From positions 4,712,662-4,776,661 of the forward strand of contig OZ241843.1 of assembly GCA_965202695.1 (NCBI GenBank): DNA of 64,000 nt. The letters are read 5' to 3'. The position numbers and the translations under genes were made by a program. This DNA comes from Vicinamibacterales bacterium. GTDB taxonomy: Bacteria; Acidobacteriota; Vicinamibacteria; Vicinamibacterales; UBA8438. The notes under the pieces are model-generated. The model made no database searches. It was not told the DNA's origin and saw nothing but the letters and a program-made list of their open reading frames with translations. Of the stretch, positions 8,066 through 42,113 are shown piece after piece. Positions within the stretch are counted from its first letter, which is position 1. Every line of letters begins with the position of its first letter.

Positions 8066-11700
<3,635 letters not shown>

Positions 11701-21299: not shown

Positions 21300-21313
21300 T
21301 TGACGGTGACGCC

Positions 21314-22000
21314 ATGCCGACCGCGAACAGAATCATGGTTGAAATCAACGACCGCATCCGCCGTCTCGTGGAAGTCGGCCTCGCCGACCGATTCCAGTAT
21401 GGATTTCTCCGACGAGTTGGAAGGCGGGCCGAGATCACGTTCCCGAACGCGGCGCATATCTCCTGGTCGCTGAAGGCCGTCGAGTACGCGGACGTCTACG
21501 GGAGACTCGTGTACGAAGGCACCTACAACGTGAAGATGCTCGACGGCGCATTGATCCAGATGACGTACGACTTTTCCGGCGACGTGCTCCAGCGCCACAG
21601 ACTGGCTTTTTTTCCCGCCCCGCACCTGCACGAGTTCCAGAACAGTCCGGACGTGTACCTCGACGACGAGCTCCACGGCGACGTGATCGCCGGAAACGTC
21701 GTGCCGTTCCCGTTGCGCTGCGATTACGATGCGCGCGCTGGCCGCCATGTGGACGTGGCGCATCCGAAGTCCCACTTGACGCTCGGCCAGTACGAACACT
21801 GCCGCATTCCGGTCTCGGCCCCGGTCACCCCGCACTGGTTCATCGATTTCCTGCTCAGGAACTTCTATCGCACACCGTCCCGGTGTTACGCGGACGAGAT
21901 GCCGCCCGGCGGCGCCACGCTCGGCGACTCGGTGTCGCCGGCGGAACGGCGGGTCATCCACGTAGTGATTCCGAGACGGAGACCTGACGCGGTTTCGTGA
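21314..22000 (+). CDS. 228-aa helicase-associated protein (possibly DUF2290-like)
   Basis: Starts 14 nt after the helicase stop on the same strand, with normal composition. I recognise no motif. The DUF2290 suggestion rests only on the helicase+DUF2290 gene-pair architecture. Confidence 0.6.
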   Translation: MPTANRIMVEINDRIRRLVEVGLADRFQYGFLRRVGRRAEITFPNAAHISWSLKAVEYADVYGRLVYEGTYNVKMLDGALIQMTYDFSGDVLQRHRLAFFPAPHLHEFQNSPDVYLDDELHGDVIAGNVVPFPLRCDYDARAGRHVDVAHPKSHLTLGQYEHCRIPVSAPVTPHWFIDFLLRNFYRTPSRCYADEMPPGGATLGDSVSPAERRVIHVVIPRRRPDAVS

Positions 22001-22821
22001 TGCGTTTCTTCAACACCACCGGTCCCGTGGTGGCGGCCGACCACTACTGCGTGCCGCCCCTCGCGCGCCTGGATCCCGGCGAACTGCTGCGGCTGGTCCG
22101 CGAGAAGCGCTACTTCGTGCTGCACGCGCCGCGGCAGACGGGCAAGACGTCGGCGCTGCTGGCGTTGCGGGATCTGCTGCGGGCCGAGGGTTTCCGCTGC
22201 GTGTACGCCAACGTCGAGGGAGGGCAGACGGCCCGCGAGGACGTGGAGCGGGCCATGCGCGTCGCGCTTGGCGCACTGGCCTCGTAGGCGGTCGAGGCGG
22301 GCGACGGCTTCCTGGACGGGATCTGGTCCGACCTGCTGACGCGGTACGGTCCCGACGGCGCGTTGCACGAGGCGCTGTCGCGCTGGACGGCGGCCGACCC
22401 GCGCCCACTGGTGCTGCTGATCGACGAGATCGACGCGCTGGTGGGCGACTCGCTGTTGTCCGTGCTGCGACAGTTGCGGGCCGGCTACGTCCGGCGACCG
22501 GCGGGATTTCCACAGAGCGTGGTGCTGTGCGGAGTGCGGGACGTGCGGGACTACCGCATCCATTCCGGGTCGGCGAACGCGATCGTCACCGGGGGCAGCG
22601 CGTTCAACGTCAAGGCGGAGTCGTTGCGGCTGGGAGATTTTTCCCGGGATGAGGTGTTCGGCGCCGGCGTTCTTTACCGCCACCCGGCCTCGGGACCGCC
22701 GCGGCGCCGGGACGATCAGCCCGCTGGCGGATCCAGGCTGCGCAGCCGGCGTTCCGCCTCGATCAACGCCGCCGCCAGATACACGATCTGCGCTTTGGGT
22801 TCCATGTCCTCGAGGGCCTGA
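21997..22821 (+). pseudogene. decayed AAA-ATPase-like gene (MRFFNTTGP.. family): in-frame TAG, and the 3' part is replaced
   Basis: ORFs 21997..22287 and 22363..22821 share one frame and are split by a TAG at 22285-22287. Walker A HAPRQTGKTS, Walker B LLIDEIDAL. Family-like sequence ends near 22660 (..LRLGDFSRDEV), then turns into Arg/Pro-rich nonsense. Confidence 0.7.
22698..22734. repeat. left copy of a 37-bp imperfect direct repeat (partner at 36659..36695)
   Basis: GCCGCGGCGCCGGGACGATCAGCCCGCTGGCGGATCC versus GCCGCGGCTCCGGGACGATCAGCCCGCCGGCGGATTC, 34 of 37 identical. Each copy is centred on the stop codon of a minus-strand ORF ending ..PPAG*. Confidence 0.85.
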
Positions 22822-22979
22822 CCGCCGCCGACGTCGGTCAGGAGCCAACTCTGCATTTCCCACTCTCTGTCCACGATCTCGTCCGCTGGCCAGACTACCC
22901 GCCGCATGCGGTCGCCCCTGACAGGCGCATCTATCGAACGCCACGCGCCGCCGTCCGCCCTCGTCGTCTCATCAGTCAT
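22716..22979 (-). CDS. small hypothetical protein (87 aa), last gene of the defence operon
   Basis: GGAGAGG RBS before the ATG at 22979. It begins 36 nt after the stop of the 1871-aa gene. No recognisable motif. Confidence 0.45.
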   Translation of the reverse strand: MTDETTRADGGAWRSIDAPVRGDRMRRVVWPADEIVDREWEMQSWLLTDVGGGQALEDMEPKAQIVYLAAALIEAERRLRSLDPPAG

Positions 22980-23015
22980 GGTCCCCTCTCCTCTCTGAGT
23001 ACGTAACCCCATACG

Positions 23016-26000
23016 TCATCCACGGTCACGTTCAGCAGGACCACGTCCTTCAGCTCCTTGAACAGCTTTTCCTCGTTGGAACGAAGGGCTTGTGACTACC
23101 GCCGTCTTCGTGCCGCCCCCGTGTCGCGTGACGCGCGGCCGGCAACGGACCTTCACCGCGCCCCGGGTGAACGCGTCGTCGGTGGCCCGGCTGCTCCAGG
23201 CGAACGCCTCGCCCGGACCGAGGGCGGCGAGCTTCGCGGGCGTCAGCGCGTCGAGCGCCGCGTTCGCCTTCTGCACGTGTTTCAACCAGGCCGGCGAATT
23301 GAACTTGTGCAGGATGATCTGGGTGGACAACTCGATGAGCGCGGTCGGGACGGATGGAGGATCCTGCGAAGCCACCATCACGGTCGTACCCTTGTGCCGC
23401 ATCTCGCGGACCACTTCGACCAGTCCGGCCACGAGGTCGGGACTGTCGATGTACTTGTGGGCCTCGTCGAACACGACCAGCTTGTTGAAACGGCGACCCT
23501 GCCAGGTGGTTTCGGCGAACATCTGCAGCAGTACGACGAAGAGTCCGAGCGCCTCGTCCTTTTCGACGAGTTCGTCCCGAAGGTCGACGATGACGAGACG
23601 TCCCGGACGCAGGACGTCCGTCAGCCGGCGGGTGTCGTCGATATATTCCTCCGCGAAGCGCAGTCGCAGCAGGGCAAGCTCCTTCAGGTAGTCGGACAGG
23701 CCGGAGTCCTGCACTTCCCGGCGCAGGGCGTTCAGGGTGATCTCGCCACGCAGCTTCTTCATGATCAGCGCGAGTTGCCGGATGTACAGGCTCTGGCTGC
23801 CGACGGCGCCCATGAGGAACTTCCAGTGCGACGCCTTCAGCTCCGACGCTGCGAATCCGATCGGCAGGACCTCGACGCCGGGATGCTCGGCGCGGCGCTC
23901 CGCGACTTTGGAGGCCGGGGCCAGAATCACCAGATCTTCCAGCGCCCGCGGCGTCGCGCCGTATTCGGCCCGCAAGGCGTCCACTTCCGGCCCGCCGGCG
24001 TTGGGCGCGGCCATCGAAGTGAACTCCGGCCGGTAGTCGAGCGTCGCGCTGTAGTGGAAGATCACCCCGGCGAGCGGATGCGGAAGCCGGTTCACGCCCT
24101 CGATCGGCATGCAGGCCATCTCGACGACGCTCCCCAACGTATAACTCTTGCCGCCGCCCTGGACGCCGAAGAGGCTGATCGTGTGGGTCTGGTTCAGGTC
24201 GAGCGCGATCTTGCGGCCGGAAGTCCGGCCGAGCACGCCGTACTGGGGCGATGCCGCGGTCGCACCGAGGATGGCGTCGCAGGCGGGGGCGCCCTCGTCC
24301 GCGACCGGCTCCGCCACGGCAACGGGCAGCACCGGTTGCACTGGGGTTTCCTGCCGCCGCGTGGCTGGTGGCTTCGGTTCCTGGGTTTCCGGCGCGGCCG
24401 GCAACTTCGGCTCCGCCGCCGCCCGCCCGTCACCGCGCAACGCCTCCGGCTCCGCCGCCGCCCGCCCGGTCCGCGGCTTCTCCCGGGGCCCGGACCCCGG
24501 CCGGTCACCGGACGGTTCACGTTCCCCGCCGGCGGGTTCGCCGCCGACCGGCGTGGACGCAGTCGCCTCCGTGCTCGACACGACCGCCTCTTCAAGCCGC
24601 GCGATTCCGCCGGCCGGAGCGTCCGCCGCCCCGCGGTCGACGTCGGAAGTCGATCGCGCACGTTCCGCCGCCAGGAACGCGGCGGTTTCGAGACGGGGCA
24701 GCAGCCGTTCCACCGGCCGCCCGGCTGCGCGCGGCGCGCCGCCGGAGCCGCCACCGACCGCGCCGACCGCGCGCTCCACGAGACCGCGAATCAGATCGAT
24801 GCCCACACGGTGGAACTCGACGCCCGCTTCGTGTTCCGGCGGCTCCGTTCCGGACTTGTCGAAGTCGAACACCAGACCGCTGCGCGAAAACCGGAGCGAA
24901 TAGCCGTCTTCCAGCGCGTCGAGAAACGACCGGGCCTCCGCTGCAGCGGCGGAATCCAGCAGGTCGTACCGCACGCCACGGTCCAGATGGAACCCGATCA
25001 GGACGCCCAGCTCGCGGGTCTTGAGCAGTCGGTCCGGACGGTCGGGCGCAGCACGCCGGGGGTCGAAATGCGTCTGGAGCACGCGCTCGCTCTGGTCTAT
25101 CTGCTCGATCATCTGCTCCTTGAGCCGGCCGTACGCACTCAGCCCGAGCTTCCGGGCGTAACACTTCACTTCGATCAGGTTGCAGGTGATCGTCCGTTGC
25201 GCGAAATCGAGATCGAACAGCGCGAGGTCCGTCCGGCGCACGGTCACCTCGTCGCCGATGGCCTCGGCCTGGTTGCGGACGCCGTGGAACAGTTCGAGGT
25301 GCGCATCGAGCGACACGACGATCTGGTTGCGCAAGGCGCCCTGATGCTCCAGGAACATGCGCGCCAGCGCCAACCCGAGGGCTTCGGCCCTTGCCGTCGG
25401 CGAGGAGACGAGCTTGAGGGCGAGACGTCCGGAAAGCGATCGCAGGTGAGCGAGGATGACGGCCGCTTGCCGCTCCCCGGCGTGGAGGCCGTATTCCGCC
25501 AGCACGGGGCCGAGGATGGCTTTCAGCTCATCGAGCGATCTCGAGCTGATGACGAGGCGGTGGCCGTGTTCGGGCGCCGCCGGCGTGTAGTCGATCAGAT
25601 AGTCGGGACGGTCGCGCCGGCCGCCGTGGTCGAAGAACTCGATGCCCATGTTCCGATCGAGGGTGAACACCCAGTCGCTGGCGTCGTGGACTTCGCTGAT
25701 CAGTGCGCGGCGGTCGGGACCGAGCACCAGACGGATGATCGGCCGGGACTCGAAGTCCGGCATGGAGCGGGCCACGGTCGCGGTCGAGGCCGAGATTCGC
25801 GCCGGGAGTCTTTCCAGGAGCATGGACGTTTCCTCCGCTCCCGCGATGATCGCCGGCGCCCCGTGACGAGGCTGCCGCTGCCACCAGACGCCGCTGTCGT
25901 CGTCCTGATAGCGCACCGTGAACGCCTGGACCAGGCCGTGCAGCGGAACGGTCTTCTCCGGCCGCAGCGGACGGCCCGCCGCGACCTGCTCGGGCGGAAA

Positions 26001-28631
26001 GAGGTCGAACAGGAAGCTGACGTGCGACCGGTAGCGGGCCGGGTCACGTCGAAAGTCGGCCGTCGCGAGGACCGCCACGGCGAGTTTCGGGAAAACGCGG
26101 CTCTGCGCCGGGATGGAGAATGCTTCGCCGCCCGATGCGCCGTTGCCCGCGAGGAGTTCCCCGATGGAGTCGCCCACGCCGGGAGCGTTCGCGTCGGGCA
26201 CGAACAGACGCACGTCGTAGCGCAGATCCCCGAACCCGTCCCGCCGCTGCAAGGCGACCAGCGCAGCGGCGAGAATCGCGGCGCGCCCCGGGTTGAACGC
26301 GTTGATGGTGAGCGTTCGCACGTAGGGATGCTGGACGAGATAGCGTTCCAGGCGCGCCGCCAGGACGTCGCCGGTGATCGCCGCACCGCCGATCGACGGT
26401 TCCGGCAGGCCGAGGGCCGCGCAAACGTCTCCGAGCAGGCCGCGCGGATCGTCCTCCGCCGCGGGCGCGTACAGCGGCCACAGTGCGTGGACGTTGTCGA
26501 CGGCGGCGAAGATGCGGCCGTCGCTGATCGGCAGCAGCGGCGGGACGTCGCCGGAGGGGATTCCGCGCAGCAGGGCCTCCCGCGCCGGCGCCGCGTGTTC
26601 GCGCGGTCCCGTGGCGGCGTCCGTGACCCATGCCGCGCCGAGTTGCGCCCAGGCGAGTTGCCGCAGGACCCGCAACGGATGGGTCGGCGCGAGAAGTGCC
26701 GCCTCGCGCACGTGTCCGCGATAGTCCCGGAGGACGAGCCGAACGGTGTCGACGGTCAACGCCGATCGCAACGACACGATCGCCTTGCGCTGGTCGCTGC
26801 CGGCCGCCCGTTCGACCTGCCCGGCAAGGTCCGCGAGCAGATCGTCGTACGCCGCGGCGTAGGCCGCGATCGCGGGGCTGTTGCTCAGGAAGTCGAGTCC
26901 CTGGGACACGAGATTCCGGGCTCCCCGCACGCGGTCGAAGTACGCCGAGCGAGCGTCCAGAAAGCTGCGCGCCGCGGCCGACGCCGGCCACTCCCCGACT
27001 TCGCCGGCCGGTGTCCGCGGCTCGCCCACGTGGATCCGCATCCGCCAGCTCAGCGGGTGTTTCGGCGATTCGAGAATGCGCTGCTCGACGTCCTTCAGCC
27101 AGCGCGCCACCGCGATCCGGAACGTGCCGTCCCGGCCGAATCCGGCTTCGAGCGTCTCCTGCGCCACGGCCCGCCGCGGCGTGCTGCGCTGCGCCCACGC
27201 AACCCGTTCCGGCGTCACCTCCGCCGGTTCGCGCTGCTGCAGGATCGCCGCGAACTGCCGTTCGAGCCGTGCGTGCTCGACGCTGTCGGCGCGGGGCACG
27301 GACCGCTGTGGCGGTTCGTCTTCCCGATCCGCCTCCGGCAGGACGTAGAACGGCTCGCTCTCGTTCGGCCGCCTGCCCGTCCGATCGGCGGGTTCTTCGA
27401 CCGGGATCGGATCGCCGTCCGCGGTCCAGGGCAGCACGCGCACGTGGTGCCAGCCCTCCTCGAAATCGATCCGGTTGAGCTTCAGGAACGAGACCGCGGC
27501 GTGCGTCCTGGCCGGCTTCCAGACCTTGACCTTGCGGGACGCGCCGACCGGACCGGCGTCCTTCGCGACGATCTGCGCCGTGAAGTGGTCCAGCCCCCGC
27601 ACTTGCCGCGGGTGCGGATCCACCTCCAGGACGACGCCGAACTTCCGGCGATCCTTCGGCGCGAGAACCTGCTGGCCGACCAGATCGGCGAGCCGGTCGT
27701 CCGCGGCTTCGTCCTCCGTCACGACGGGCAGGTCCGTATCGACGCGCACGAACCGGATCCGGTCCGGCGCGATTTCGGAACCGAACTCCCACTTGTCGAA
27801 CGACAGCTCCCAGTTCCGGCGGTCGAGCACGATTTCGCGGGTCCAGGCGACGGGATCCTCGATGCCCGTTTCCGAAAGGTAGGCGGCCAACCGGCGCCGG
27901 AGGCCCTTGTTGACGAGATCGAGGTCCAGCACCCGGCCCAGCACCGACGCGGCGGCGTCGGTCAGGCGCCGGACGCAGTGCAGGTTCTTGCGCACACGCC
28001 CGTACGCCGCCGGCGGATCGTCGAACAGCTTGAAGTCGGGAACCAGTCCCAGCTCGTACAGCGCGCCGCCGAACGCCTCGCCGTCGTTGCCGTTCGCCTG
28101 CGCGCAGAGCAGGTAGCGAACCTGGGCCGCCGTCCCCGCCCAGCTCCACGGCTGCTCCCGCAGATGCCCCAGCAGGCCGCGCACGTACCCGTGCAGCGAG
28201 GAGGGGACACGCGCCAGCACCTGCCCCCGGATGGTCTCGTAGGCGTCGCCGGTCCGGAACTCCTCGAACGTCGCGCTGCCGAACGAGTCCTCGGCGCTCG
28301 TCCGCAGGTTCGGCGGCAGGAAGACGCACAACGGCGGCCGCAGCGATCCGTCCGGCCGCGGGTTGCGCAGCTCGACCAGCTTCGTCGACGACACGTGGAG
28401 GTCGTCGCCGGGGAGAGGCGCGCCCTCCGCGAGCACGTGGACGTTGGCGGCGGGGACCTGGCGGCGCAGCGCTCCGGCGAGCGCGATCATCAGATCCGGC
28501 CCCAGGTCCGACACCCGCATGCAGTGTCCCGGCTTCCTGTCGCGCAACGCGGCCACGAGCGCGGGCAGGAACAGCTCTTCGATGCTGCGCGTGAGGTCGG
28601 AAGCAGGAAGGGCCCGGAACGCGCCGCTCAT
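23016..28631 (-). CDS. 1871-aa protein: large unknown N-terminal region, PD-(D/E)xK-like motif, Ala/Pro/Glu-rich linker, C-terminal HerA/FtsK(DUF87)-like ATPase (DptH-like architecture)
   Basis: ATGA overlap with the upstream gene. TDLALFDLD..NLIEVKCY near aa 1135-1157. Walker A FGVQGGGKS (aa 1489-1496), Walker B KLVVFDEAHKY (aa 1717-1727). The antisense 1867-aa ORF is an Arg/Gly/Pro-rich artefact. Confidence 0.85.
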   Translation of the reverse strand: MSGAFRALPASDLTRSIEELFLPALVAALRDRKPGHCMRVSDLGPDLMIALAGALRRQVPAANVHVLAEGAPLPGDDLHVSSTKLVELRNPRPDGSLRPPLCVFLPPNLRTSAEDSFGSATFEEFRTGDAYETIRGQVLARVPSSLHGYVRGLLGHLREQPWSWAGTAAQVRYLLCAQANGNDGEAFGGALYELGLVPDFKLFDDPPAAYGRVRKNLHCVRRLTDAAASVLGRVLDLDLVNKGLRRRLAAYLSETGIEDPVAWTREIVLDRRNWELSFDKWEFGSEIAPDRIRFVRVDTDLPVVTEDEAADDRLADLVGQQVLAPKDRRKFGVVLEVDPHPRQVRGLDHFTAQIVAKDAGPVGASRKVKVWKPARTHAAVSFLKLNRIDFEEGWHHVRVLPWTADGDPIPVEEPADRTGRRPNESEPFYVLPEADREDEPPQRSVPRADSVEHARLERQFAAILQQREPAEVTPERVAWAQRSTPRRAVAQETLEAGFGRDGTFRIAVARWLKDVEQRILESPKHPLSWRMRIHVGEPRTPAGEVGEWPASAAARSFLDARSAYFDRVRGARNLVSQGLDFLSNSPAIAAYAAAYDDLLADLAGQVERAAGSDQRKAIVSLRSALTVDTVRLVLRDYRGHVREAALLAPTHPLRVLRQLAWAQLGAAWVTDAATGPREHAAPAREALLRGIPSGDVPPLLPISDGRIFAAVDNVHALWPLYAPAAEDDPRGLLGDVCAALGLPEPSIGGAAITGDVLAARLERYLVQHPYVRTLTINAFNPGRAAILAAALVALQRRDGFGDLRYDVRLFVPDANAPGVGDSIGELLAGNGASGGEAFSIPAQSRVFPKLAVAVLATADFRRDPARYRSHVSFLFDLFPPEQVAAGRPLRPEKTVPLHGLVQAFTVRYQDDDSGVWWQRQPRHGAPAIIAGAEETSMLLERLPARISASTATVARSMPDFESRPIIRLVLGPDRRALISEVHDASDWVFTLDRNMGIEFFDHGGRRDRPDYLIDYTPAAPEHGHRLVISSRSLDELKAILGPVLAEYGLHAGERQAAVILAHLRSLSGRLALKLVSSPTARAEALGLALARMFLEHQGALRNQIVVSLDAHLELFHGVRNQAEAIGDEVTVRRTDLALFDLDFAQRTITCNLIEVKCYARKLGLSAYGRLKEQMIEQIDQSERVLQTHFDPRRAAPDRPDRLLKTRELGVLIGFHLDRGVRYDLLDSAAAAEARSFLDALEDGYSLRFSRSGLVFDFDKSGTEPPEHEAGVEFHRVGIDLIRGLVERAVGAVGGGSGGAPRAAGRPVERLLPRLETAAFLAAERARSTSDVDRGAADAPAGGIARLEEAVVSSTEATASTPVGGEPAGGEREPSGDRPGSGPREKPRTGRAAAEPEALRGDGRAAAEPKLPAAPETQEPKPPATRRQETPVQPVLPVAVAEPVADEGAPACDAILGATAASPQYGVLGRTSGRKIALDLNQTHTISLFGVQGGGKSYTLGSVVEMACMPIEGVNRLPHPLAGVIFHYSATLDYRPEFTSMAAPNAGGPEVDALRAEYGATPRALEDLVILAPASKVAERRAEHPGVEVLPIGFAASELKASHWKFLMGAVGSQSLYIRQLALIMKKLRGEITLNALRREVQDSGLSDYLKELALLRLRFAEEYIDDTRRLTDVLRPGRLVIVDLRDELVEKDEALGLFVVLLQMFAETTWQGRRFNKLVVFDEAHKYIDSPDLVAGLVEVVREMRHKGTTVMVASQDPPSVPTALIELSTQIILHKFNSPAWLKHVQKANAALDALTPAKLAALGPGEAFAWSSRATDDAFTRGAVKVRCRPRVTRHGGGTKTAVVTSPSFQRGKAVQGAEGRGPAERDRG

Positions 28632-33200: not shown

Positions 33201-34407
33201 GCAGCTCGTAGAAGACGAGGCCGGCGGCGTACAGGTCGGACGCCACGCTCGCCTGCGAGGCGTCCCGGTAGCACTCGGGCGCCTGGTACATCGGATCGAG
33301 TTCGTCGACGACGTCGTCGGCGATGGTGGTGCCGGCCTGGTCGCGGCCGGCCCGCGCATGGTCGAAGCCGCAGAGCAGCGCCCGGCCCGAGGCGGCGACG
33401 AGCACCGCGTCCGGCGTCAGGTTCCGGTGCACGACCCGCGGTTCGCTCCGGTGCGCGTGGCCGAGGGCGGCGAGCACGTCGCGGACGACCGCGATCTTCT
33501 GGTCGAACGTCAGCGCCAGCGCGCTCTTCCTGACGTGCTGGCGCAGGGCGTGCCCGGCCACGTCCGCGGTGACCAGGACGAAGCGGTCCTCCGCCTCGGT
33601 CGGGAAGAACTCGCGCACGGTCAGGACGTTCGGGTGTCCGGGCAGCGCCGCCACCGCGCGGTAGGCGTTCTCGATGCGGCGGCGCTCCCGCCGGCGCTCG
33701 TCCTCCGGCAGGTACGGATCGACCGGATATATCCGCAGCCGGGCGGTGCCGCCGCGCTTTGCGCCGAGCAGCGTGTGCTTGGCGCGGTACTCCGTATAGC
33801 GGTCGGTCCCGCCGAGCCGTTCCTCGACCTGCCACGTGCCGTAGCACGGCGGCGCGCTCCTCGGCTTCGCGCCGCCGACGATCGCCTGCCGCACGCGGCG
33901 GAAGTGCGCCCGGACGTCGGTGGACCGGCCGGGCGGAATGCGCGTCGTGGCCTGGAAGAAGGCGGCGCACTTCCGGAGGTACGCCACCGACGGACCGTCC
34001 TGGCCGCCCGGGTCCTGGACGAACGCGTCGGGCGCGGTCATCAGCACCGCGGCGTCGACGTACAGGCCGCCGAGCGCCCGGTCCGTCGGATGCCGGTCGC
34101 AGATCAGCGCCTTCAGCACCTTCGCGTGCCGGCGCAGGATCGCCAGCGGCGAGTGGTACGGCGCGCGCCCCTCCGGGTACCACCGGCCGCCGTGGACGTC
34201 GACGTGGCCCCGGGTGCCCTTGACGTCGATCACGTGGACGCAGTGCGGGCCGAGCAGCGCCGCGTCGATCTCGTGGATCTCGTGGCCCTGCCGCAACTCG
34301 AAGTTGTGGATGACGGTGAAGGTGTCCGGCAGGTGGTCGCGCAGCCAGGCGATCGCCTCCCGCTCGGAGTCGTTGACCGGCTGGCCGATGGCGACGACTT
34401 TGGCCAT
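30289..34407 (-). CDS. 1372-aa NERD + pseudokinase + Ser/Thr kinase + P-loop NTPase fusion protein
   Basis: The start MAKVVAIGQ overlaps the S-subunit stop by 1 nt. NERD motif EIDAALLGPHCVHVIDVKGTRG. Kinase 1 is degenerate (HRN, GFD, no G-loop). Kinase 2 is canonical (GQGAFAVV, VLK, HRDVKPSN, DFN). Walker A VVVTGNAGDGKT. Confidence 0.9.
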   Translation of the reverse strand: MAKVVAIGQPVNDSEREAIAWLRDHLPDTFTVIHNFELRQGHEIHEIDAALLGPHCVHVIDVKGTRGHVDVHGGRWYPEGRAPYHSPLAILRRHAKVLKALICDRHPTDRALGGLYVDAAVLMTAPDAFVQDPGGQDGPSVAYLRKCAAFFQATTRIPPGRSTDVRAHFRRVRQAIVGGAKPRSAPPCYGTWQVEERLGGTDRYTEYRAKHTLLGAKRGGTARLRIYPVDPYLPEDERRRERRRIENAYRAVAALPGHPNVLTVREFFPTEAEDRFVLVTADVAGHALRQHVRKSALALTFDQKIAVVRDVLAALGHAHRSEPRVVHRNLTPDAVLVAASGRALLCGFDHARAGRDQAGTTIADDVVDELDPMYQAPECYRDASQASVASDLYAAGLVFYELLVGEPAWTSIDDMMEKDGVFPVKPSEQKPELPPAVDEWLQGLCAFDGEDRPSSAAVALARFNEIVGPDPRDGGRAGAPERAAAPAHRPEVDYAALRRGDDVAGRFRIEERLGQGAFAVVYRVFDAFSDTSRVLKIIVKDRRSTFERLKREYSVLERLPPHPNVVRVVWADKLRDGTPYLVFEYVPGTGVNELLDNGSLSPEDVGRLGAETLAGLEHLHRNGVFHRDVKPSNLLWTDRGVRIIDFNVAAHRDDDEARPGGTRRYIPPDLEFTEEMTADEKTDWDLFSLGVTLYECATGRYPWKGAAPVADVAPTEPADYAGHLAPGFARVLVRAIAPRRADRFASAAAFRAALAEIGSVRAAPPADETAATGDPPLPPPRKPNFNPFVSHLQAMYSQSPRSNAGTRGLDEIGRETYVRTLLDERLRPALFGGEFRLVVVTGNAGDGKTAFIQQIERATEAAATLTARPNGAEFTCAGRRFVTNHDGSQDEEDKANDDVLRDFFQPFEGDDGGGWPRDETRIIAVNEGRLVDFLSEHADRYRRLRAIVLAGLAGAAPEDGVAAVNLNLRSVVAGSEGGPSDAIFDRLVRRLTADRFWAACAGCDIRDRCYAHHNARTLQDPVAGPKVVERLRALYAITHLRGRLHVTMRDLRSALAFTLAGARDCDRIHALYAGSDAGARQQIVDSFYFNAWQGGGSGDRLLTRLREIDVGEATNPDLDRALDYLPPTAGETARFTFDRRGDYDTRLLERLHRDLPHDPAPPGAGGAAAHRGYVAMLRRRQFFERRDERWKEMLPYRTYGEFWRLVAGETDPGLYRDRLIAGINRGEGLRDPRPVGDALALRVRVVDRGTVRSYRLFPGARFRLALPAPSEQRFVEHMPPALRFVHEPPGGQPAELIVDLDVYEMLSRLRDGYRPSLEEQQGHYLSLAVFKNVLSSAPYQEVLLTRTGHDYFRIARGEEGVLTLDALAGEAD

Positions 34408-35822
34408 CAGGCCGCCGCCCGTTCCTCGATCCAGCGCTCCACGACGGCGCGCGCCTCGCGCTCCCGGCCGATCGCGTCGTGCCGGGCGGTGCGGACCGCG
34501 AAGGCGCGCCGGCCGAACTCCGCCGTCCGCGCGTCGTCGAGCCGCGGCAGCACGACGCCCGCGACGGCCGGTTCGTCGAGGTGGGGGATGGAGGATCCGA
34601 ACGCGCGGGCCTTGAGTTGCCGCCGTCCGTACTCCGACGAGAGGCAGGCGAACAGGTACCCGGCCTCGGCTTCGCTTGCGCTGAACAGCCTCATCGCGTC
34701 GTGCGTGACCGTGGCGCCAACCACGTCGCCGTAGGGAAGCACGGCGTGTCCGATGATCCCGTTCAGTTGTCCGGAGGCCGGCACCAGCACGGTCGTTTCG
34801 TCGACGATCAGGTTCTCGAAACCCGGCGTGCGCCGCGCCAGCAGATAGCCGGCCTCCGGATCGGATCGCATGAGCGCGGAGGTGCCGAAGAACGGCAGGC
34901 CGAATCGCGGGTCCTCGACCGGAATGCGCTTGAACATCGGCGGCCAGAACACCCGTTCGGCCAGTGCGCCCACCGTCGTCCGGCGCGCCGCCGGGAGCGC
35001 CGCCAGCGGCTCCAGCGCGGCGCGGTGCCAGTTGCCGTGGAACAGGCCGTCCATCCGGCCGCGGAGGGCGCCGGCCCGCACCAACGCCGTGTCCGGCGAC
35101 GCCGGCCCGGACCGCCGGCCGATGGGAGGCAGGCCGGCCGCTTGCTCGATTGCGCGGACGACCACCCGCAACTCCGCGGACGCCTTCGTCCGCAGCGCCG
35201 CCGCCTCGGTCACGAGCCGGTGCGCCTCGTCCTGCACGTCGTCCGGGGCGAGGGGCACCGGCGCCCGCGCGACGTGCCGCGGCTCGACGTGCTGGACGAT
35301 CGCGCCGTAGGTCCCTCCCGTCAGCAGCGGCAGCCCGAAGCGGCCGCTCAGGAAGGCGTAGAGGTACCCCGGCCGGACGCGCGCCGGGTCGGGCGCGATC
35401 TTGAGCACGTCCTGAGACGACCACATTCCGGACATTTCCAGACGCGCGTAGGACGTCCGCCCTATCGTGCCCGAGCACGACATCAGGGTCATGTCCGCGT
35501 CGAGTCGCAAATGGGCAAGCCGGGCGGAGGAGGCGTCGGACTTCTTCAGAAGGTCGGCGTGCGTGAAGTCCGCGTGCAGCATGCTGCTGCCTGTGAGGAA
35601 ACGAACGCCGTGTTCGGGATCGGAAACGTAGTTCCTCACGAACTGCGGTCCGTTGTAGATGCCGCCCTCGTGCCCGCGCGTGAGAGCGCAAAGATCGGAC
35701 CGGGCCGCGGGCAGGCGCTCCAGAAGCATCCGGGCCTCCATCGCGCCCGACAGGTACGGCCCGCAGTCGAGCCGCCGGCCCTCCCGCACGATCCAGGCGC
35801 TCGGAACGTGCTTCTCTTTCAT
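34407..35822 (-). CDS. type I R-M specificity-subunit-like protein (HsdS-like, two target-recognition halves)
   Basis: Two-lobed layout with a central helical spacer (EAHRLVTEAAALRTKASAELRVVVRAIEQ) and a C-terminal one. GSSIPHL-type conserved block. An alternative start lies at 35858. Confidence 0.7.
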   Translation of the reverse strand: MKEKHVPSAWIVREGRRLDCGPYLSGAMEARMLLERLPAARSDLCALTRGHEGGIYNGPQFVRNYVSDPEHGVRFLTGSSMLHADFTHADLLKKSDASSARLAHLRLDADMTLMSCSGTIGRTSYARLEMSGMWSSQDVLKIAPDPARVRPGYLYAFLSGRFGLPLLTGGTYGAIVQHVEPRHVARAPVPLAPDDVQDEAHRLVTEAAALRTKASAELRVVVRAIEQAAGLPPIGRRSGPASPDTALVRAGALRGRMDGLFHGNWHRAALEPLAALPAARRTTVGALAERVFWPPMFKRIPVEDPRFGLPFFGTSALMRSDPEAGYLLARRTPGFENLIVDETTVLVPASGQLNGIIGHAVLPYGDVVGATVTHDAMRLFSASEAEAGYLFACLSSEYGRRQLKARAFGSSIPHLDEPAVAGVVLPRLDDARTAEFGRRAFAVRTARHDAIGREREARAVVERWIEERAAA

Positions 35823-35963
35823 CGCGACGCTCGGCGCTCTCGGGCCGTCGCCGTCCACGATCCCCCGACCCGGCGGCCGATCACGTCGACGTTGCCGCTG
35901 CCGCGAGGACGAACGGCTGCCCCGTTCCGCGTCCGCGTCCGACTCCGCGGCGGGCCTGACTGG

Positions 35964-36464
35964 TCAACGGGGGCGGGAATGCCTTGCGGCCGGCGGCCGA
36001 ACGTCGGTTCGGGTCGGCGGCGTCAGGTGGCCCAATTGCTCCAGGACGAATGCGTCAGGCAAATCCGAAGATTTTTCGTAGTGGGCGCGCCGGCTCCGTC
36101 CACCGACGTACGCATGGCAGTCCGCCCGCCCGTCGTCGCGCAACAGGACAAGGACGGCGCCCGGCCGGTCGGGCACCTTGAAGTGCAGGGCGATTTCGGC
36201 GTCCTGCGTCGGGTAGACGGTAAGCAAGACACTTGCCGGCGCGCGTTGCGTCAAGGCCCGAACGAGCCTCTCCGCCTCCGCCTTGGTGGTTTCGCCGACC
36301 TGCGGAAGGTTTTCTTCCGCGATTTCGTCGTCGACTTCCGCCAGTTCCGCCAGGGCGTCCGCGAGCCGACGTGGCTCCGGCGGGCCGAGGCGCCGGAAAG
36401 CGCCGCCCGGCGGGCTCGCGCCAACCGGCGACGGGGCGTGCGGCTCGCTCCGTTCTCGGTCCAT
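35964..36464 (-). CDS. 166-aa hypothetical protein
   Basis: ORF taken from the internal ATG (MDRERSE..). The C-terminal about 110 aa have normal alpha/beta-like composition. No motif recognised. Confidence 0.4.
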   Translation of the reverse strand: MDRERSEPHAPSPVGASPPGGAFRRLGPPEPRRLADALAELAEVDDEIAEENLPQVGETTKAEAERLVRALTQRAPASVLLTVYPTQDAEIALHFKVPDRPGAVLVLLRDDGRADCHAYVGGRSRRAHYEKSSDLPDAFVLEQLGHLTPPTRTDVRPPAARHSRPR

Positions 36465-36658
36465 CGCCACGCGTTCAGTATACGGGAGCCGGGGCCGACC
36501 TCGTCGTGACCGGCGCTTCGGAATCCTCCCGACCAGCCCCGGCCGCCCCGCCGTCGGCTCGTTTGTCGGCGGTCTGGACGCTACCCCTCGGCCGGACAAG
36601 TGCTCCCTGGGGAATCGGTGCGAACCGGGTTCGCCACGAGGTCGTCACCCTCGGGGCT

Positions 36659-36695
36659 GCCGCGGCTCCGGGACGATCAGCCCGCCGGCGGATTC
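36659..36695. repeat. right copy of the 37-bp direct repeat (partner at 22698..22734)
   Basis: See 22698..22734. The two copies are 13,961 bp apart. Confidence 0.85.
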
Positions 36696-37660
36696 GGGTC
36701 GAGCGCGATCTGGACCGCTTGCGCCGGCGGAGCGACGAAAGGCGTCTGTGCCGTTATGAAGGCGTGGCCAGCATGGTTCTCGACGATCTTGACGGCTGAC
36801 GTGCCGGTGAACGTGTGCGTGGTCGCGTGGAACACCGAGAGACCGAGATCCTGGAGTTTTTCGTCGTCTTCCAGCGCAAGGATCGAAAGCCCTTGCTCGG
36901 ACAGATCGGACCGGGACAGGTGTCGGCTGTGGCTCTTGAACCGCTTGTGATCCGACAGCCAGTCCGAGACGGAGCGAGCGAATTCCGCACGATCGTCCCT
37001 GTGTCTGAACATGTACGCTTCAAGCCAGGTGCTCACCAGTTCCCTCGACAACTCCAGGGCCGTTTCGCAGTGCACAAGCAGATCCGGCCCGTACTGGCTC
37101 AGCATCGGGAGCCACGCGGACAGCTTGGCGGGGTCCGAGCACTCCCGTTGCGCCTTGTCGAACTGATCCAGCACCGCCTGCGCCGGGATGTAGCGCGTCC
37201 CCAACGGCGTCGCCAGCAGCACCTGCGGGTCGGTCGGGCCGAGAAACGAGTGCTTCCCCATCATGATTTCGTCCGCGGCGCACGAGATCATGGTGGCCGC
37301 GGACATGGCGAGCTGCGGGACGATGACGCGAATGTGGGAGAACCGGGAACGAAGATAGGCGACGATGCCCGCGGCGGCTTCAGGGGAACCGCCCGGGCTG
37401 TGGAGGATCAGATCGAGATTCGGACCCCGCAAGCCTGAAGTGACCTCCATGAGGGCATGAATGTCCTCGTCGGTGATGGAAGTGCGCGCCGGCGGAGCGT
37501 CGTCCCGTTGCAGCCATCCGGAGGCGTACAGAACGACATCGCGATCGGTGTGGCGATGAAGGTCGGCGAGATACCGGCGTCGAACGCCGTCGAAGTCAGG
37601 GGGCGAACCTTGCGCCGCCGACTGGCTCAACTCGGCAAGGATGCCGCTCCAAAGAGGCAT
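36677..37660 (-). CDS. SDH-family Clp-fold serine protease (ClpP/SppA-like fold)
   Basis: LILHSPGGSPEAA and QLAMSAATMISCAADEIMM resemble the Clp/SppA serine-protease core. The sequence is visibly lower in GC than its neighbours. Confidence 0.7.
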   Translation of the reverse strand: MPLWSGILAELSQSAAQGSPPDFDGVRRRYLADLHRHTDRDVVLYASGWLQRDDAPPARTSITDEDIHALMEVTSGLRGPNLDLILHSPGGSPEAAAGIVAYLRSRFSHIRVIVPQLAMSAATMISCAADEIMMGKHSFLGPTDPQVLLATPLGTRYIPAQAVLDQFDKAQRECSDPAKLSAWLPMLSQYGPDLLVHCETALELSRELVSTWLEAYMFRHRDDRAEFARSVSDWLSDHKRFKSHSRHLSRSDLSEQGLSILALEDDEKLQDLGLSVFHATTHTFTGTSAVKIVENHAGHAFITAQTPFVAPPAQAVQIALDPNPPAG

Positions 37661-37668
37661 GCGGCGCG

Positions 37669-37893
37669 TCAGGAGCCCGGCCGGAAGTTCGCATGGTCGG
37701 TCGTCGTGGTGCGCGACGGCGTCCTGGTCACCGCGCGGTAGGGATCGAGCCCGCGATCGGCGGTGCGCCAGTCGCCGTACACGCGCATGATCTCGGGGAT
37801 GCCCGGGCGCTTGCGAGCTTCCTCAAGCAGCGCGGCGTGCGCCCGCGCCCGTTCGGAGGTCTTCTCTTCGTCGGATCGTCGGGTTATCGTCAT
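37669..37893 (-). CDS. 74-aa hypothetical protein upstream of the protease
   Basis: Its stop lies 8 nt before the protease ATG. It has a charged helical N-terminus. Weak evidence. Confidence 0.4.
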   Translation of the reverse strand: MTITRRSDEEKTSERARAHAALLEEARKRPGIPEIMRVYGDWRTADRGLDPYRAVTRTPSRTTTTDHANFRPGS

Positions 37894-38016
37894 GTCTCCC
37901 CCACCGGCTCGCCCGCTCCCGCCGGCCCGTTCGCCATCGTAGCATGGATCGCGCGGCCCGGGACCGCTCCACCCAGCGCCGCCCCTGAACCCGCTACCCG
38001 CCGAACTCGCCGTTCC

Positions 38017-40200
38017 TCAGCGTGGCTCCGGGTGCTCGCGCCGGAAGGCGCGGTAGCGTTCGGCGATCTCCGGCAGGTCGTCGTCGACGATCTTCTCCCG
38101 GCGCCGCAACGTGCGCGTCACCGTCCGTCCGTTGCGGGTCACGGTTTCCGCTTCCTCCTTCACCACGACGATCTCCTCGCCCTCCGGCGAGCGCTTGTGC
38201 AGCGTGCCGCCGCGGCGGTCGAAGCCGACCTTCTCGGCCACGGCCATGAAGATCGGGTAGTCCGCCGGTCCGCCGAGCGCTTCGCGCTTGACCACCTCGT
38301 CCGGCTTCTTCTTCAGGAAGAGCAGGCTGGTCAGGATGTTGACGTTGGCCTCGACGATGAACGTCTCCACCGGCAGGTCCACGCTGGCCAGCACCCAAGC
38401 GCGTCGCAGGATCCACCAGCGGACGTACTCGGCGGCGGGGTTGCCGAGGATGCCGTCGGGCAGGACGATGCCCATGCGTCCGCCCGGCCGGAGCCAGTCG
38501 AGGCAGCGCTCGATGAACAGGACTTCCGGGGCCACGGCGCTCTGCAGCCGCCCGGTGTTCCGGAAGTGCCCGTCCTCCGTGCGTTCCCAGACGTGCGCCA
38601 GCTCGAACGGTTCGAGGATCCCCCTGTCGGTGATCGGGATGGCCGATCCGAAGGGCGGGTTGGTCATCACCACGTCGGCGGTCCCGAACTGGATCGCCCG
38701 GCGCGCGGAGCGCACGCCGGGGAGATGCCCCTTCGGAAACTCCAGCGCGTTCAGGTGGTACAGGTGCCCCTTGCCGTCGCCCGCCATCACCATGTTCATC
38801 TGGCTGGCCCGGACGAGGAACGGGTCGAAGTCGCAGCCGAAGACCTGCTTCTTCGCGTAGTCCCGCAACCGTTTCTGCAGCGATTCGAACTCTTCCGACG
38901 TTTCCGTCCCGGGACGGCCCCACGCTTCGTGCCGGAACCGCTCCATCCGGTGGGCGAGCGCGGCCACGAGGAACCCGGCCGTCCCGCACGCCGGATCCAG
39001 CACGCGCTCGTCCTCCCCGGGGTCGAGGATGGCGACGACGAGGCGGATCGCGCCGCGCGGCGTGAAGTACTGGCCGCGGTCGCCGCGCAGGTTGGCGCCG
39101 ACGATCTCCTGGTAGGCGGCCCCCTTGGCATCGACGTCGATGCGGCTGAACTCGTACTTCGACAGCTCCGAGATCATGAAGGCCAGCGCGCGGTCCGACA
39201 GCTTGATCTCCTCGCCGCCGTCGAAGATGGCGCGGTACTCCTGCTTCACCTCGTCGAAGAGCGGCGCGATCCGTGCCCGGATGGCGCGTCGGCCCGCATC
39301 GGTGAACTGCTCCTGCGGACCGGCCCAGAAGCGGCGCCGGTCTCGCCGCCGCGTCCGCTCGTCGGACATCTTGCAGAAGATGAGGTAGAGGAATTGCCAG
39401 AACGCGGCGTCCTTCGGCATCCCCTCGTTGCCGTGGATGAAATTGTGGCAGCGGCGGAACGCGATCCGCAGCATCTCCGGGTCGGCCCGGCGCGCCCGCG
39501 CCCGCGACAGCACGCCGCGGTCGTCGATCGACTCGTCGGCCGCCGGCCAGTCGCCGATCGGCTCGGCGTCCACCTGGAAACGCGTCGCCTTCTTCCGCAG
39601 GAAGAAGAACTCCAGGCCGTTGGTCCACAGCCCGTACCGGCAGACGTCGATCTCCTCGAAGAACGGCTTGATCTCGGCGATGTCCTTCGCGGCCTGCTCG
39701 TAGTCGCGCATCTTCACGGCGCCGCGCTTGTTCTGCTTCGGCTCGGGGCGGCAGACCACCACCCGCTGGAGATGCCCGGGCTCGTGCGGCTGCCCGGCGG
39801 CGAAGATCGCCAGATCCACCCGCCGCCGCCGGCCGCCGGCCGCGACCGGGAAGTCCGCTTCCATGTCGTCCACGGAGATCCCGTACTCGTGGTGCAGCGC
39901 GCGGGCGATCCGCTGGCGCACCTGCTCCCTGGGAGTCTCCTTGCGCGTCTTCGTGCCGGAGATGAAATCGAGAACGAAGCCGTCGCGGACGACGTCGGCG
40001 CCGGTCTCGTCGGCCTCGGTTCCCACCGTCGCGGCCGGCCCCGCGGCAACCGCAACGGTCTCGGCTTCCTCGGCGGCGGTCGTCACGGCGTTCGGTTCCG
40101 TCCCGGTCTCCGCGACGGAGGGCGGCATCGCCTGCGCAGCCGCGTTTCTGGCGCCGCGGCGCCGACGCGTTCCCGCCCTGGATGGGGACGACCCGCTCAT
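38017..40200 (-). CDS. N6-adenine DNA methyltransferase (HsdM-like) with an N-terminal HsdR_N-like domain
   Basis: Motif I VLDPACGTAGFL and motif IV MTNPPFG. The N-terminal block ETPREQVRQRIARALHHEYGISVDDMEADF..VDLAIF resembles the type I R-subunit N-terminal-like domain. Start chosen at ATG 40200 (alternative 40125). Confidence 0.88.
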   Translation of the reverse strand: MSGSSPSRAGTRRRRGARNAAAQAMPPSVAETGTEPNAVTTAAEEAETVAVAAGPAATVGTEADETGADVVRDGFVLDFISGTKTRKETPREQVRQRIARALHHEYGISVDDMEADFPVAAGGRRRRVDLAIFAAGQPHEPGHLQRVVVCRPEPKQNKRGAVKMRDYEQAAKDIAEIKPFFEEIDVCRYGLWTNGLEFFFLRKKATRFQVDAEPIGDWPAADESIDDRGVLSRARARRADPEMLRIAFRRCHNFIHGNEGMPKDAAFWQFLYLIFCKMSDERTRRRDRRRFWAGPQEQFTDAGRRAIRARIAPLFDEVKQEYRAIFDGGEEIKLSDRALAFMISELSKYEFSRIDVDAKGAAYQEIVGANLRGDRGQYFTPRGAIRLVVAILDPGEDERVLDPACGTAGFLVAALAHRMERFRHEAWGRPGTETSEEFESLQKRLRDYAKKQVFGCDFDPFLVRASQMNMVMAGDGKGHLYHLNALEFPKGHLPGVRSARRAIQFGTADVVMTNPPFGSAIPITDRGILEPFELAHVWERTEDGHFRNTGRLQSAVAPEVLFIERCLDWLRPGGRMGIVLPDGILGNPAAEYVRWWILRRAWVLASVDLPVETFIVEANVNILTSLLFLKKKPDEVVKREALGGPADYPIFMAVAEKVGFDRRGGTLHKRSPEGEEIVVVKEEAETVTRNGRTVTRTLRRREKIVDDDLPEIAERYRAFRREHPEPR

Positions 40201-40488
40201 CTGGCCACTCCCTGGCGCCCGCGCTCTGCCGCCGGCCGCTCCAACGGCCGATGTGCCGGCGACGGAACGGCCGCTGTCCACGAACCCCGGACGCCGAGTC
40301 CCCTCTTCCTGGCCAAGGTGCAGATGGTCTTCTCGGCTGCCGTTCAGGAGGCCCGCGACCTCCCGGAGCGTCAGAACGTCGTCCGAGGCAAGGCAACCCC
40401 GGTTCCGGCCAACTCCAATGGAGCCGGCGCCAAAGGGGGCGGATCGTACATCAAAGAGAGCTTGACCGCGGATCAGAGGCGTGTTAAG

Positions 40489-40500
40489 TGTTGCGCAACA
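40489..40500. promoter_or_regulatory. perfect 12-bp palindrome TGTTGCGCAACA, candidate operator in the divergent HTH/methyltransferase promoter region
   Basis: It lies 28 nt upstream of the HTH GTG start, inside an AT-richer 330-bp divergent intergenic region. Confidence 0.45.
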
Positions 40501-40527
40501 TGCAAATCCGGGGAGGAGCACAGCGTC

Positions 40528-40905
40528 GTGGCCGGGACCTTCGGTGAGACGATCCGGGAAATGCGGCAGGCGCAGCGGATGGGCCTGCGCGCCGCCGCGG
40601 ACCGTCTCGGGATCTCGCCCGCCTACCTCAGCCGCATCGAGCGGGGCCGGGAGCGCCCGCCGAAGCCGGACCTGGTGAAGCGGCTGACGGCTCTCCTCGG
40701 CGGCGACTCGGACCTGCTGTTCCGACTCGCGGAGAGCACCGACCCGGACCTCGCGGAGTACGTGCGCAGCGTTCCGAACGTGCCCGAGTTCCTGCGCACG
40801 GCCCGGGCGATGAAACTGACGTCGGACGACTTCGCGGCGCTGATCGAGGACGTGAAGCGGCGCCGGCCGTCGGAAGCGGCGCGCACGACGGGCGCCGGCG
40901 TGTGA
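40528..40905 (+). CDS. Xre-family helix-turn-helix regulator (controller-like)
   Basis: GGAGGAG RBS 9 nt before the GTG at 40528. HTH sequence IREMRQAQRMGLRAAADRLGISPAYLSRIERG. Transcribed divergently from the methyltransferase. Confidence 0.8.
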   Translation: MAGTFGETIREMRQAQRMGLRAAADRLGISPAYLSRIERGRERPPKPDLVKRLTALLGGDSDLLFRLAESTDPDLAEYVRSVPNVPEFLRTARAMKLTSDDFAALIEDVKRRRPSEAARTTGAGV

Positions 40906-41329: not shown

Positions 41330-41349
41330 GGGTGCACTGCCCCGGGGCC

Positions 41350-42105: not shown

Positions 42106-42113
42106 CCCGTTCA

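Follow-up and report, generated by a model that had tools for sequence, protein, structure and literature searches.

Which defence system joins an HsdM-like adenine methyltransferase and an HsdS-like specificity protein to a kinase and very large ATPases, and what place does a serine protease have among them? The question is raised by a locus of ~18 kb (22716..40905) in a 64,000-nt stretch of DNA, hereafter the window, from a Vicinamibacterales bacterium of the Acidobacteriota (GenBank assembly GCA_965202695.1, contig OZ241843.1, positions 4,712,662 to 4,776,661). We consider it very likely that the locus is a complete-looking member of the methylation-associated defence system (MADS) family, with a DndFGH-type restriction arm and an accessory cassette in the gap between its MAD2 and MAD5 genes. 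It is an example of an already published system, in a rare variant that lacks MAD3 and MAD4, has a single methyltransferase and carries an Xre-family gene in place of mad1. The genes from 22716 to 40200 form a minus-strand array in which all are co-directional, and the Xre gene diverges from it. Every gene listed in an earlier annotation made from the sequence alone (the original prediction) was recovered in place.

Identification of the locus

The operon in which MADS was discovered, that of Pseudomonas aeruginosa SMC4386, has eight genes, mad1 to mad8 (Maestri et al., bioRxiv 10.1101/2023.03.30.534895; Cell Host Microbe 2024). In that host mad2 writes N6-methyladenine (m6A) at the bipartite motif TCAGNNNNTCC, and the system restricts unmethylated phage and plasmid DNA; defence requires mad2-4 and mad6-8, mad1 is dispensable, and mad5 can be deleted only jointly with mad2 or mad3 (bioRxiv 10.1101/2023.03.30.534895). 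The authors' detection model treats MAD6-8 as mandatory and the rest as accessory, and MADS was found in Proteobacteria, Actinobacteria and Nostocales (bioRxiv 10.1101/2023.03.30.534895).

We assign the present locus to this family because five of its proteins score above the curated cut-offs of the NCBIfam MADS equivalogs: MAD2 (antiphage_MADS2, NF047738, 979 bits against a cut-off of 720), MAD5 (antiphage_MADS5, NF047740, 431.9 against 400), MAD6 (antiphage_MADS6, NF047741, 766 against 460), MAD7 (antiphage_MADS7, NF047733, 624.8 against 410) and MAD8 (antiphage_MADS8, NF047742, 208 against 175, over residues 35-239). The PADLOC mad2, mad5, mad6, mad7 and mad8 models match the same five proteins. 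The Pfam copy used held no model matching MAD5, MAD7 or MAD8, and the assignment rests on NCBIfam and PADLOC. All three components that are mandatory in the authors' MacSyFinder model (MAD6, MAD7 and MAD8) are present, and the accessory MAD2 and MAD5 lie in the same operon. The tentative mention of MADS in the original prediction is thus borne out. No new kind of system is involved: MADS is published, has curated detection models and has been validated experimentally in P. aeruginosa.

Relative to the type system, the five proteins are orthologous by the equivalog models and encoded in the same order, with the same domain content of N6-methyltransferase, specificity (S) subunit, kinase, DndG-like protein and HerA ATPase. 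They are ~40-62% identical to those of a canonical eight-gene MADS on a Piscinibacter plasmid. The locus differs from the type system in having neither MAD3 (an AAA/OLD-like ATPase) nor MAD4 (DUF4276): no open reading frame (ORF) of the locus matches the MAD3 model NF047739 or the MAD4 model NF047734, both of which do recognise the Piscinibacter proteins, and tblastn with the Piscinibacter MAD3 and MAD4 proteins found nothing in the 64-kb window. It differs further in that mad1 persists only as a relic with a divergent Xre regulator instead, in that a p74/SDH-protease cassette and one ORF stand between MAD2 and MAD5, and in that the host is an acidobacterium.

Architecture of the core proteins

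MAD2 (38017..40200, 727 aa; this and all further genes of the array are on the minus strand) is predicted to be an N6-adenine DNA methyltransferase, with a Pfam N6_Mtase match of 6e-28, an NPPF motif at residue 514 and the S-adenosylmethionine motif DPACGTAG; at its N-terminus it bears an HSDR_N_2 domain of the PD-(D/E)xK-like type (2e-8). MAD5 (34407..35822, 471 aa), the Type-I-like S subunit, is matched by PADLOC mad5 and by the Specificity_I/II models. Of the core proteins it varies most from locus to locus (34-85% identity, against 64-91% for MAD7), as expected of target-recognition domains.

MAD6 (30289..34407, 1372 aa) combines a NERD domain (Pfam, 1e-13), kinase-like domains (Pkinase, 2e-56) and a DndF/SspF-like P-loop core, and is matched by PADLOC mad6 at 3e-92. 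Its residues 13-758 match PADLOC PglW (4e-79) and its residues 817-1071 match SspF (1.2e-23). The first kinase-like domain, with HRN at 327 and GFD at 347, is consistent with a pseudokinase. The motifs of an active Ser/Thr kinase lie further on (K536 in VLK, D628 in HRD, DFN at 645), and K848 belongs to a Walker A motif. This order of NERD domain, inactive kinase, active kinase and DndF core has been described for a subset of DndF proteins (PMC10853773; PMC12839542).

MAD7 (28628..30289, 553 aa) is matched by PADLOC mad7 (5e-113) and weakly by SspG (2e-7); its homologs bear Pfam PF26611 'MAD7', and one of them is named MAD7 by NCBI. Searches of PDB sequences with MAD7, as a single sequence or as a profile, gave nothing useful, and its relation to DndG is visible only by fold comparison: for an AlphaFold model built with 33 homologs (predicted local distance difference test score, pLDDT, 73), DndG 7EXX was the sole significant Foldseek match in the PDB (E 9e-4, probability 1.0). 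A cytochrome match in the PDB was rejected as a low-complexity artefact.

MAD8 (23016..28631, 1871 aa) has a large N-terminal region, a PD-ExK motif (D1135/E1154/K1156) and a C-terminal HerA/FtsK-type ATPase with Walker A K1495 and Walker B D1722/E1723. PADLOC mad8 matches residues 1469-1845, the HerA part, at 2.5e-39, alongside HerA models; profile matches in the PDB were TdpA and HerA, and sequence searches gave generic HerA only. None of these six residues varies in an alignment that extends to Bacillus and Bacteroidota homologs with no more than 26-31% identity.

Stop and start codons overlap at TGATG between MAD5 and MAD6 (a one-base overlap), at TGATG between MAD6 and MAD7, and at ATGA between MAD7 and MAD8; the overlaps behind the originally described translational coupling of the S gene with the three large genes are real. 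Because the pairwise ratios of nonsynonymous to synonymous substitution rates (dN/dS) against the closest full locus are 0.21-0.30 for the core genes and the protease gene, we take these genes to be coding and under constraint. The motif residues of MAD6 and MAD8 named in the original prediction (K536, D628, K848, E1154/K1156 and K1495) were reproduced. Its picture of a modification module joined to a DndFGH-like multi-ATPase effector with a PglW-like kinase head is supported by the PglW, SspF and SspG matches and by the DndG fold.

The gap between MAD2 and MAD5

The gap (35823..38016) holds a 74-aa gene, an SDH-type protease gene and one ORF. Among 11 close loci, nucleotide homology extends as far as the MAD2 stop codon, is lost across the gap and returns with the MAD5 start. 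A wider census drew 80 MAD7-anchored loci from species-representative genomes, and the position was visible in 60 of them; the sample is limited to MAD7 relatives of at least ~50% identity, the locus search having been seeded with a five-sequence MAD7 alignment (a nine-sequence alignment was too diverse). A second methyltransferase paralog occupies the position in 40 of the 60, three of them also with DUF1828 or DUF4062. MAD3, mostly with MAD4, is found in six, a DUF4062-HATPase_c_4 protein in two, the p74/protease cassette in one, nothing in three, and other or unidentified genes in eight (three a Fic protein, one an ISL3 transposase). Read in this way, the MAD2-MAD5 gap is a variable cargo slot, differing from locus to locus by the gene content predicted for it.

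The second MAD2 paralog sits directly before MAD5 (loci L097, L107-L110 and L113-L161) and does not occur in the window. It has NPWF for the catalytic NPPF, has lost the ExK of the N-terminal domain, and scores 681-701 against antiphage_MADS2, just under the cut-off of 720. We propose that it is probably a non-catalytic methyltransferase-like subunit.

Five-gene cores without MAD3 and MAD4 are common in other phyla, and in three Bacteroidota plasmid loci the methyltransferase (M) gene is followed directly by the S gene, with no cargo. At the other end of two of the Bacteroidota plasmid loci, a PP2C phosphatase gene overlaps the end of MAD8 (L050, 15632..16336; L051, 20127..20792). The phosphatase is likely to be an antagonist of the MAD6 kinase; no PP2C phosphatase gene was found in the window or in close relatives.

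The remaining ORF of the slot, p166 (35964..36464; 211 aa if translation begins at a TTG at 36599), matches no family in Pfam, PADLOC or NCBIfam. It occurs only in MADS-embedded copies (L001 at 75% identity, L010 at 59%, and L177) and as a fragment in L016. With a dN/dS of 0.48 and a G+C content at third codon positions (GC3) of 0.78, the case for its being a coding gene is plausible but weak.

A protease cassette within and outside MADS

The protease gene (36677..37660) encodes a 327-aa serine protease of the SDH type, predicted to have a ClpP fold. It scores 61.5 bits against Pfam SDH_protease PF01972 (cut-off 31.3), and the top Foldseek matches of its AlphaFold model (pLDDT 86) are ClpP structures at probability 1.0. 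The HSPGG motif and residues S120, D144, H244 and H247 are conserved in 28 orthologs. Its score against the NCBIfam Clp_like_SDH equivalog is 70 against a cut-off of 250, and it therefore belongs to a divergent subfamily. Public data hold ~3,400 relatives (E<=1e-10), annotated at most as 'serine protease'.

Eight nucleotides upstream lies the gene for p74 (37669..37893), a 74-aa protein with the conserved core RPG(V/I)xE(V/I)MxVY..W...DxGLDxYR and no family match in Pfam, PADLOC or NCBIfam. Among 33 loci with the protease, ~28 encode a homolog of p74 at this position. In a metagenome-assembled genome (MAG) of the Longimicrobiales (L025, ~9779..10975) p74 and the protease form one continuous reading frame, a natural fusion that supports a direct functional link between them. 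The original prediction had listed a protease cassette and two small ORFs as extras. The cassette is indeed extra: it is an autonomous two-gene module, with p74 as its first gene.

The 33 cassette loci span more than 10 phyla and come from Vicinamibacterales, Latescibacterota, Gemmatimonadota, Chloroflexota, Proteobacteria, Verrucomicrobiota and others. Only one has a full MADS context, and ~28 of the 33 copies lie outside MADS. Their nearest large neighbours are enriched in HmaA/B/C, DrmD-like and BrxH-like helicases, HsdR, Type IIG/ISP enzymes and Mrr; a PLD-SNF2 protein with an Eco57I-type methyltransferase is a further neighbour. In L026 (6414..14551) the cassette stands between a PLD-SNF2 helicase-nuclease and an Eco57I/TaqI_C-type methyltransferase, an arrangement reminiscent of the effector and methyltransferase genes of the recently described MANTIS. 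Distant cassettes share no conserved sequence on the 3' side of the protease gene, and there is hence no attC-like end element. Judged by this distribution, p74 and the protease are an autonomous, horizontally spreading module inside methylase-based restriction operons. No description of the cassette was found in PADLOC, and a literature search on the SDH/DUF114 family in defence returned only false prefix matches.

Most likely the cassette is no core part of MADS but a second-line module of an accessory or hitch-hiking kind. It is also conceivable, if unlikely, that it is an integral, required component of this MADS variant that replaces MAD3 and MAD4, for example by activating or licensing MAD6-8 through proteolysis. 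The cassette does sit exactly in the MAD3/MAD4 position, co-oriented within the operon. The protease is under purifying selection (dN/dS 0.23), and the arrangement is kept at 84-88% identity in L001, the locus of another Vicinamibacterales MAG. Because MAD3 and MAD4 are needed in the type system, replacement of their role may be required. Set against these points are the single occurrence of the cassette among the 60 other MADS loci in which the slot can be seen, the three loci in which that slot is empty and the Bacteroidota plasmid loci that pass straight from M to S, as well as the prevalence of cassettes outside MADS. In addition, L177 and L010 retain p74 and the MADS core but have other sequence in place of the protease gene.

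For the accessory module itself we put forward a tentative proposal, which we think somewhat doubtful in its entirety: that p74 and the protease make up an accessory defence module of two genes, so far undescribed, plugging into MADS, Hma, Type I, Type IIG/ISP and PLD-SNF2-plus-methyltransferase operons, where they act as a guard or abortive effector or as an addiction module, and that the MAD2-MAD5 gap serves specifically for the docking of such interchangeable cargo. The cassette could be a second-line guard or abortive effector, its protease being set free, for example, on inhibition of the host restriction complex, or else an addiction module with a stabilising effect on the operon. The alternative occupants of the docking slot would be MAD3/MAD4, the degenerate methyltransferase paralog, Fic, the DUF4062-ATPase, DUF1828 and the SDH cassette. 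A parallel is offered by PrrC in the EcoprrI Type Ic locus, which we take to be an accessory module embedded in a restriction-modification (R-M) operon. Modules of that type share with the cassette the form of a small self-contained unit between the genes of a methylase-based restriction system; the cassette differs in consisting of a ClpP-fold protease and a 74-aa partner instead of an anticodon nuclease, and its guard function is conjectural.

The regulatory end and the mad1 relic

Divergent from the array, on the plus strand, a gene with a GTG start (40528..40905) encodes a 125-aa Xre-family helix-turn-helix (HTH) protein, a repressor candidate (Pfam HTH_31 6.3e-10, HTH_3 1.7e-9; weak PADLOC matches to HTH_VI and capH; dN/dS 0.27). 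It is kept at 64-86% identity and in divergent orientation in eight of the 11 close MADS loci. Upstream of it, at 40462..40500 (plus strand), lies a promoter-like element, TTGACC-17 nt-TAAGTG, followed by a perfect 12-bp palindrome, TGTTGCGCAACA, at 40489..40500, ~30 nt upstream of the Xre start. Both elements were first recognised by inspection of the sequence, and pattern searches then tested them. A strict consensus promoter and terminator scan of 40150..40700 found nothing, and the inverted-repeat tool missed the palindrome, the arms of which are only 6 nt long. The palindrome occurs once in the window (0.05 expected) and recurs at the same position in eight related loci, exactly in L001, L004, L005 and L006 and with one mismatch in L002, L003, L008 and L009. 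The original prediction had placed a palindromic operator upstream of the divergent Xre gene, and its uniqueness and conservation fit such a candidate role. We propose autoregulation: through this palindrome, the Xre protein probably represses the promoter of its own gene, and perhaps the operon as well.

The Xre gene had also been taken for the HTH gene of the system, and in this respect the original prediction needs correction. Canonical mad1 is a same-strand HTH gene of the AlpA/excisionase type, intact in L002, L005 and L007, and the PADLOC mad1 model does not match the Xre protein, though it does match the Piscinibacter mad1 protein. In the window mad1 survives as a relic at ~40203..40393 on the minus strand. 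Three-frame translation gives the pieces DDVLTLREVAGLL, AEKTICTLARKRG and VRGQRPFRRRHIGRW in three different frames, and, when aligned at the nucleotide level with the intact mad1 of L002, L005 and L007, the relic carries one +1 and one -2 indel; there is no usable start codon, and there are at least two frameshifts. Because neither of the two closest relatives, L001 and L177, retains mad1 in any form, its loss is probably real and not an assembly error.

Related loci, transfer and decay

The same gene order is found at 59-91% identity in 11 complete loci and, at ~50%, in the canonical MADS of the Piscinibacter plasmid, and MAD5, MAD6, MAD7 and MAD8 stand together in all 60 further loci with DNA long enough to see. 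The co-occurrence of the 1372-, 553- and 1871-aa trio with M and S genes across genomes, on which the original prediction had been made to depend, is thus positive throughout. The MADS proteins share 82-91% identity with those of L001, 65-84% with their counterparts in MAGs that bear the labels Spirochaetia and Gammaproteobacteria, and 70-81% with those of one labelled Patescibacteria, with unrelated flanks. The trigger factor places the window in the Vicinamibacterales, with <=77% identity to any representative. Together with the closest loci it speaks against an origin in Streptomyces, which the high G+C content might suggest. Such identity of MADS proteins across phyla, set against the identity of trigger factor within the order, indicates a recent horizontal transfer of the locus.

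Several observations weigh against reading the locus as a working MADS with a DndFGH-type arm. MAD3 and MAD4 are needed for defence in Pseudomonas, and in their absence the system might function in another way or with lower efficiency. No DndH, DptH or SspH model matches MAD8 at E<=0.01, and its matches are to HerA only. The operator role of the palindrome is argued from conservation and position, and methylation, its motif, protection and complex formation would all hold here by analogy with characterised systems. Moreover, loci of this lineage do decay and are being lost in some genomes, several of them being disrupted or mere remnants. The closest relative, L177 (ENA PANK22-1 scaffold_402; MAD7 98% and DNA 95-96% identical), differs in three genes: MAD2 is split, the protease gene has been replaced, and MAD8 is truncated and in part inverted. 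In L010 the disruption consists of a 3.6-kb insertion after MAD6 and replacement of the protease gene, and L016 keeps only a 3' fragment of MAD2 and the cassette.

These relatives, together with the frameshifted mad1 relic and the absence of the MAD3 and MAD4 genes that are essential in Pseudomonas, are what could be said for the locus being itself a decaying or inactive MADS remnant that has lost mad1, MAD3/MAD4 and the second methyltransferase paralog and has at most an orphan methyltransferase activity. We judge this improbable. The five core ORFs are full length relative to homologs, every catalytic motif and start/stop junction is retained, and the low core dN/dS and the wide occurrence of five-gene cores without MAD3 and MAD4 speak for an intact locus. 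As predicted from these features, a complete-looking MADS remains the preferred reading.

Relation to DndFGH, Type I and BREX type 2 systems

The restriction arm shares most with the DndFGH/DptFGH/SspFGH systems. The C-terminal half of MAD6 matches SspF, and MAD7 matches SspG and has a DndG-like fold. In MAD8 a PD-ExK motif precedes the terminal HerA/FtsK ATPase, but no DndH, DptH or SspH model matches the protein. The self mark differs: it is presumably m6A from the Type-I-like M and S pair and not phosphorothioate, and no Dnd- or Ssp-like modification gene (dndABCDE, sspABCD) occurs among the ORFs of 22.7-40.9 kb.

With Type I R-M systems the locus shares an N6_Mtase protein and an S subunit of the two-target-recognition-domain type as modification and recognition module. 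It differs in that it has no HsdR, restriction presumably coming from MAD6-8, and in the extra HSDR_N_2 domain of MAD2. It might be argued that MAD2 and MAD5 are an ordinary Type I modification pair with HsdR elsewhere in the genome, the three large genes being an unrelated neighbouring system; MAD2 does have N6_Mtase, MAD5 does resemble HsdS, and our view is limited to 64 kb of the genome. This explanation is very improbable. The MAD5 and MAD6 genes share one base, and no locus examined, whatever its phylum and including those on plasmids, separates the five genes. Against hsdM TIGR00497 (cut-off 243) MAD2 scores 20 bits, as opposed to 979 against MADS2. As the original prediction had also held, HsdR is missing: tblastn over the 64-kb window found no HsdR-like, SNF2-like or other restriction helicase gene, and neither did Pfam scans of the large flanking ORFs.

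The N-terminal NERD, pseudokinase and kinase domains of MAD6 align with PglW of BREX type 2/Pgl, whereas its C-terminal half is DndF-like and lacks the winged-HTH triad plus iSTAND of that protein. The idea that the locus is a BREX type 2 (Pgl) variant around a PglW-like kinase can draw on this alignment but is scarcely credible, as MAD6 reaches 255 bits against NCBIfam BREX_PglW, far below the cut-off of 990 and over the N-terminal half only, MAD2 reaches 17 bits against BREX_2_MTaseX (PglX; cut-off 400), and no homolog of PglZ, BrxC, BrxD or BrxH was found in the locus with Pfam, PADLOC or NCBIfam, nor any relative of PglZ or BrxC in the window.

Proposed mechanism and implications

We propose that MAD2 and MAD5 act as a Type-I-like methyltransferase that would place m6A on both strands of a bipartite host motif, as has been shown in Pseudomonas. 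MAD6, MAD7 and MAD8, the overlapping genes of which point to co-translation, would then form a DndFGH-type restriction complex that acts against unmarked DNA. Within this complex, MAD8 is expected to combine ATP-driven DNA translocation by its HerA/FtsK domain with cleavage by its PD-ExK motif, and MAD7 may bind DNA in the manner of DndG. MAD6 could serve as a DndF-like nucleotide-binding sensor, with its NERD nuclease and active Ser/Thr kinase as co-effectors or regulators. The divergent Xre protein would set expression through TGTTGCGCAACA, probably by repressing its own promoter and perhaps that of the operon. The mechanistic questions raised in the original prediction, the role of the kinase above all, are real ones, but they belong to MADS in general.

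As a natural five-gene core, the locus implies that MAD3/MAD4 and the second methyltransferase paralog are not universally required. It narrows the minimal machine to MAD2, MAD5 and MAD6-8, which would make a smaller construct for reconstitution. The slot census suggests that MADS has a modular accessory position, and this modularity might account for the puzzling mad3 and mad5 genetics of the Pseudomonas system. The new leads are the cassette and the modularity of the slot only; the locus itself is a published system.

Neighbouring features

The G+C content of the window is ~72% and is slightly lower over ~19 to 41 kb. Directly beside MADS, at 19137..22000 on the plus strand, lie genes for a 720-aa UvrD-like helicase and then a 228-aa DUF2290 protein, which give full-length matches to the PADLOC candidate-defence models 'Helicase' (1e-296) and 'DUF2290' (1.5e-78). 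By these matches the pair is a candidate second defence-type system. Between it and MADS, at 21997..22821 (plus strand), two adjacent ORFs of 96 and 152 aa, starting MRFFNTTGPV... and ...LVLLIDEIDA, have weak AAA_22 and AAA_30 matches only and are probably the halves of a frameshifted gene of the AAA-ATPase type, a pseudogene. The large flanking ORFs encode an M4 peptidase, ClpB, ClpX, trigger factor and similar proteins in Pfam scans, and the region behaves as a small defence island flanked by housekeeping genes. A search for a transfer RNA gene or integrase marking the island borders near the locus found none.

At the downstream end of the array, 3 nt past MAD8, a non-conserved 98-aa ORF, p98 (22716..23012, minus strand; GC3 0.76), has no homolog downstream of MAD8 in any related locus and is probably not part of the system. 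Its last 22 nt and the 28 nt downstream are a copy of the 3' end of the protease gene. The resulting 50-nt direct repeat (22688-22737 and 36649-36698, 88% identical), the sole notable one found, brackets p166 and MAD5 through MAD8 and suggests a trace of a former second copy of the cassette or a recombination scar. Beyond the Xre gene, the intergenic sequence at 41340..41530 and 42105..42216 contains families of direct repeats of 26-46 nt, 90-93% identical and spaced by 71-145 nt, which may be elements of the repetitive extragenic palindromic (REP-like) kind.

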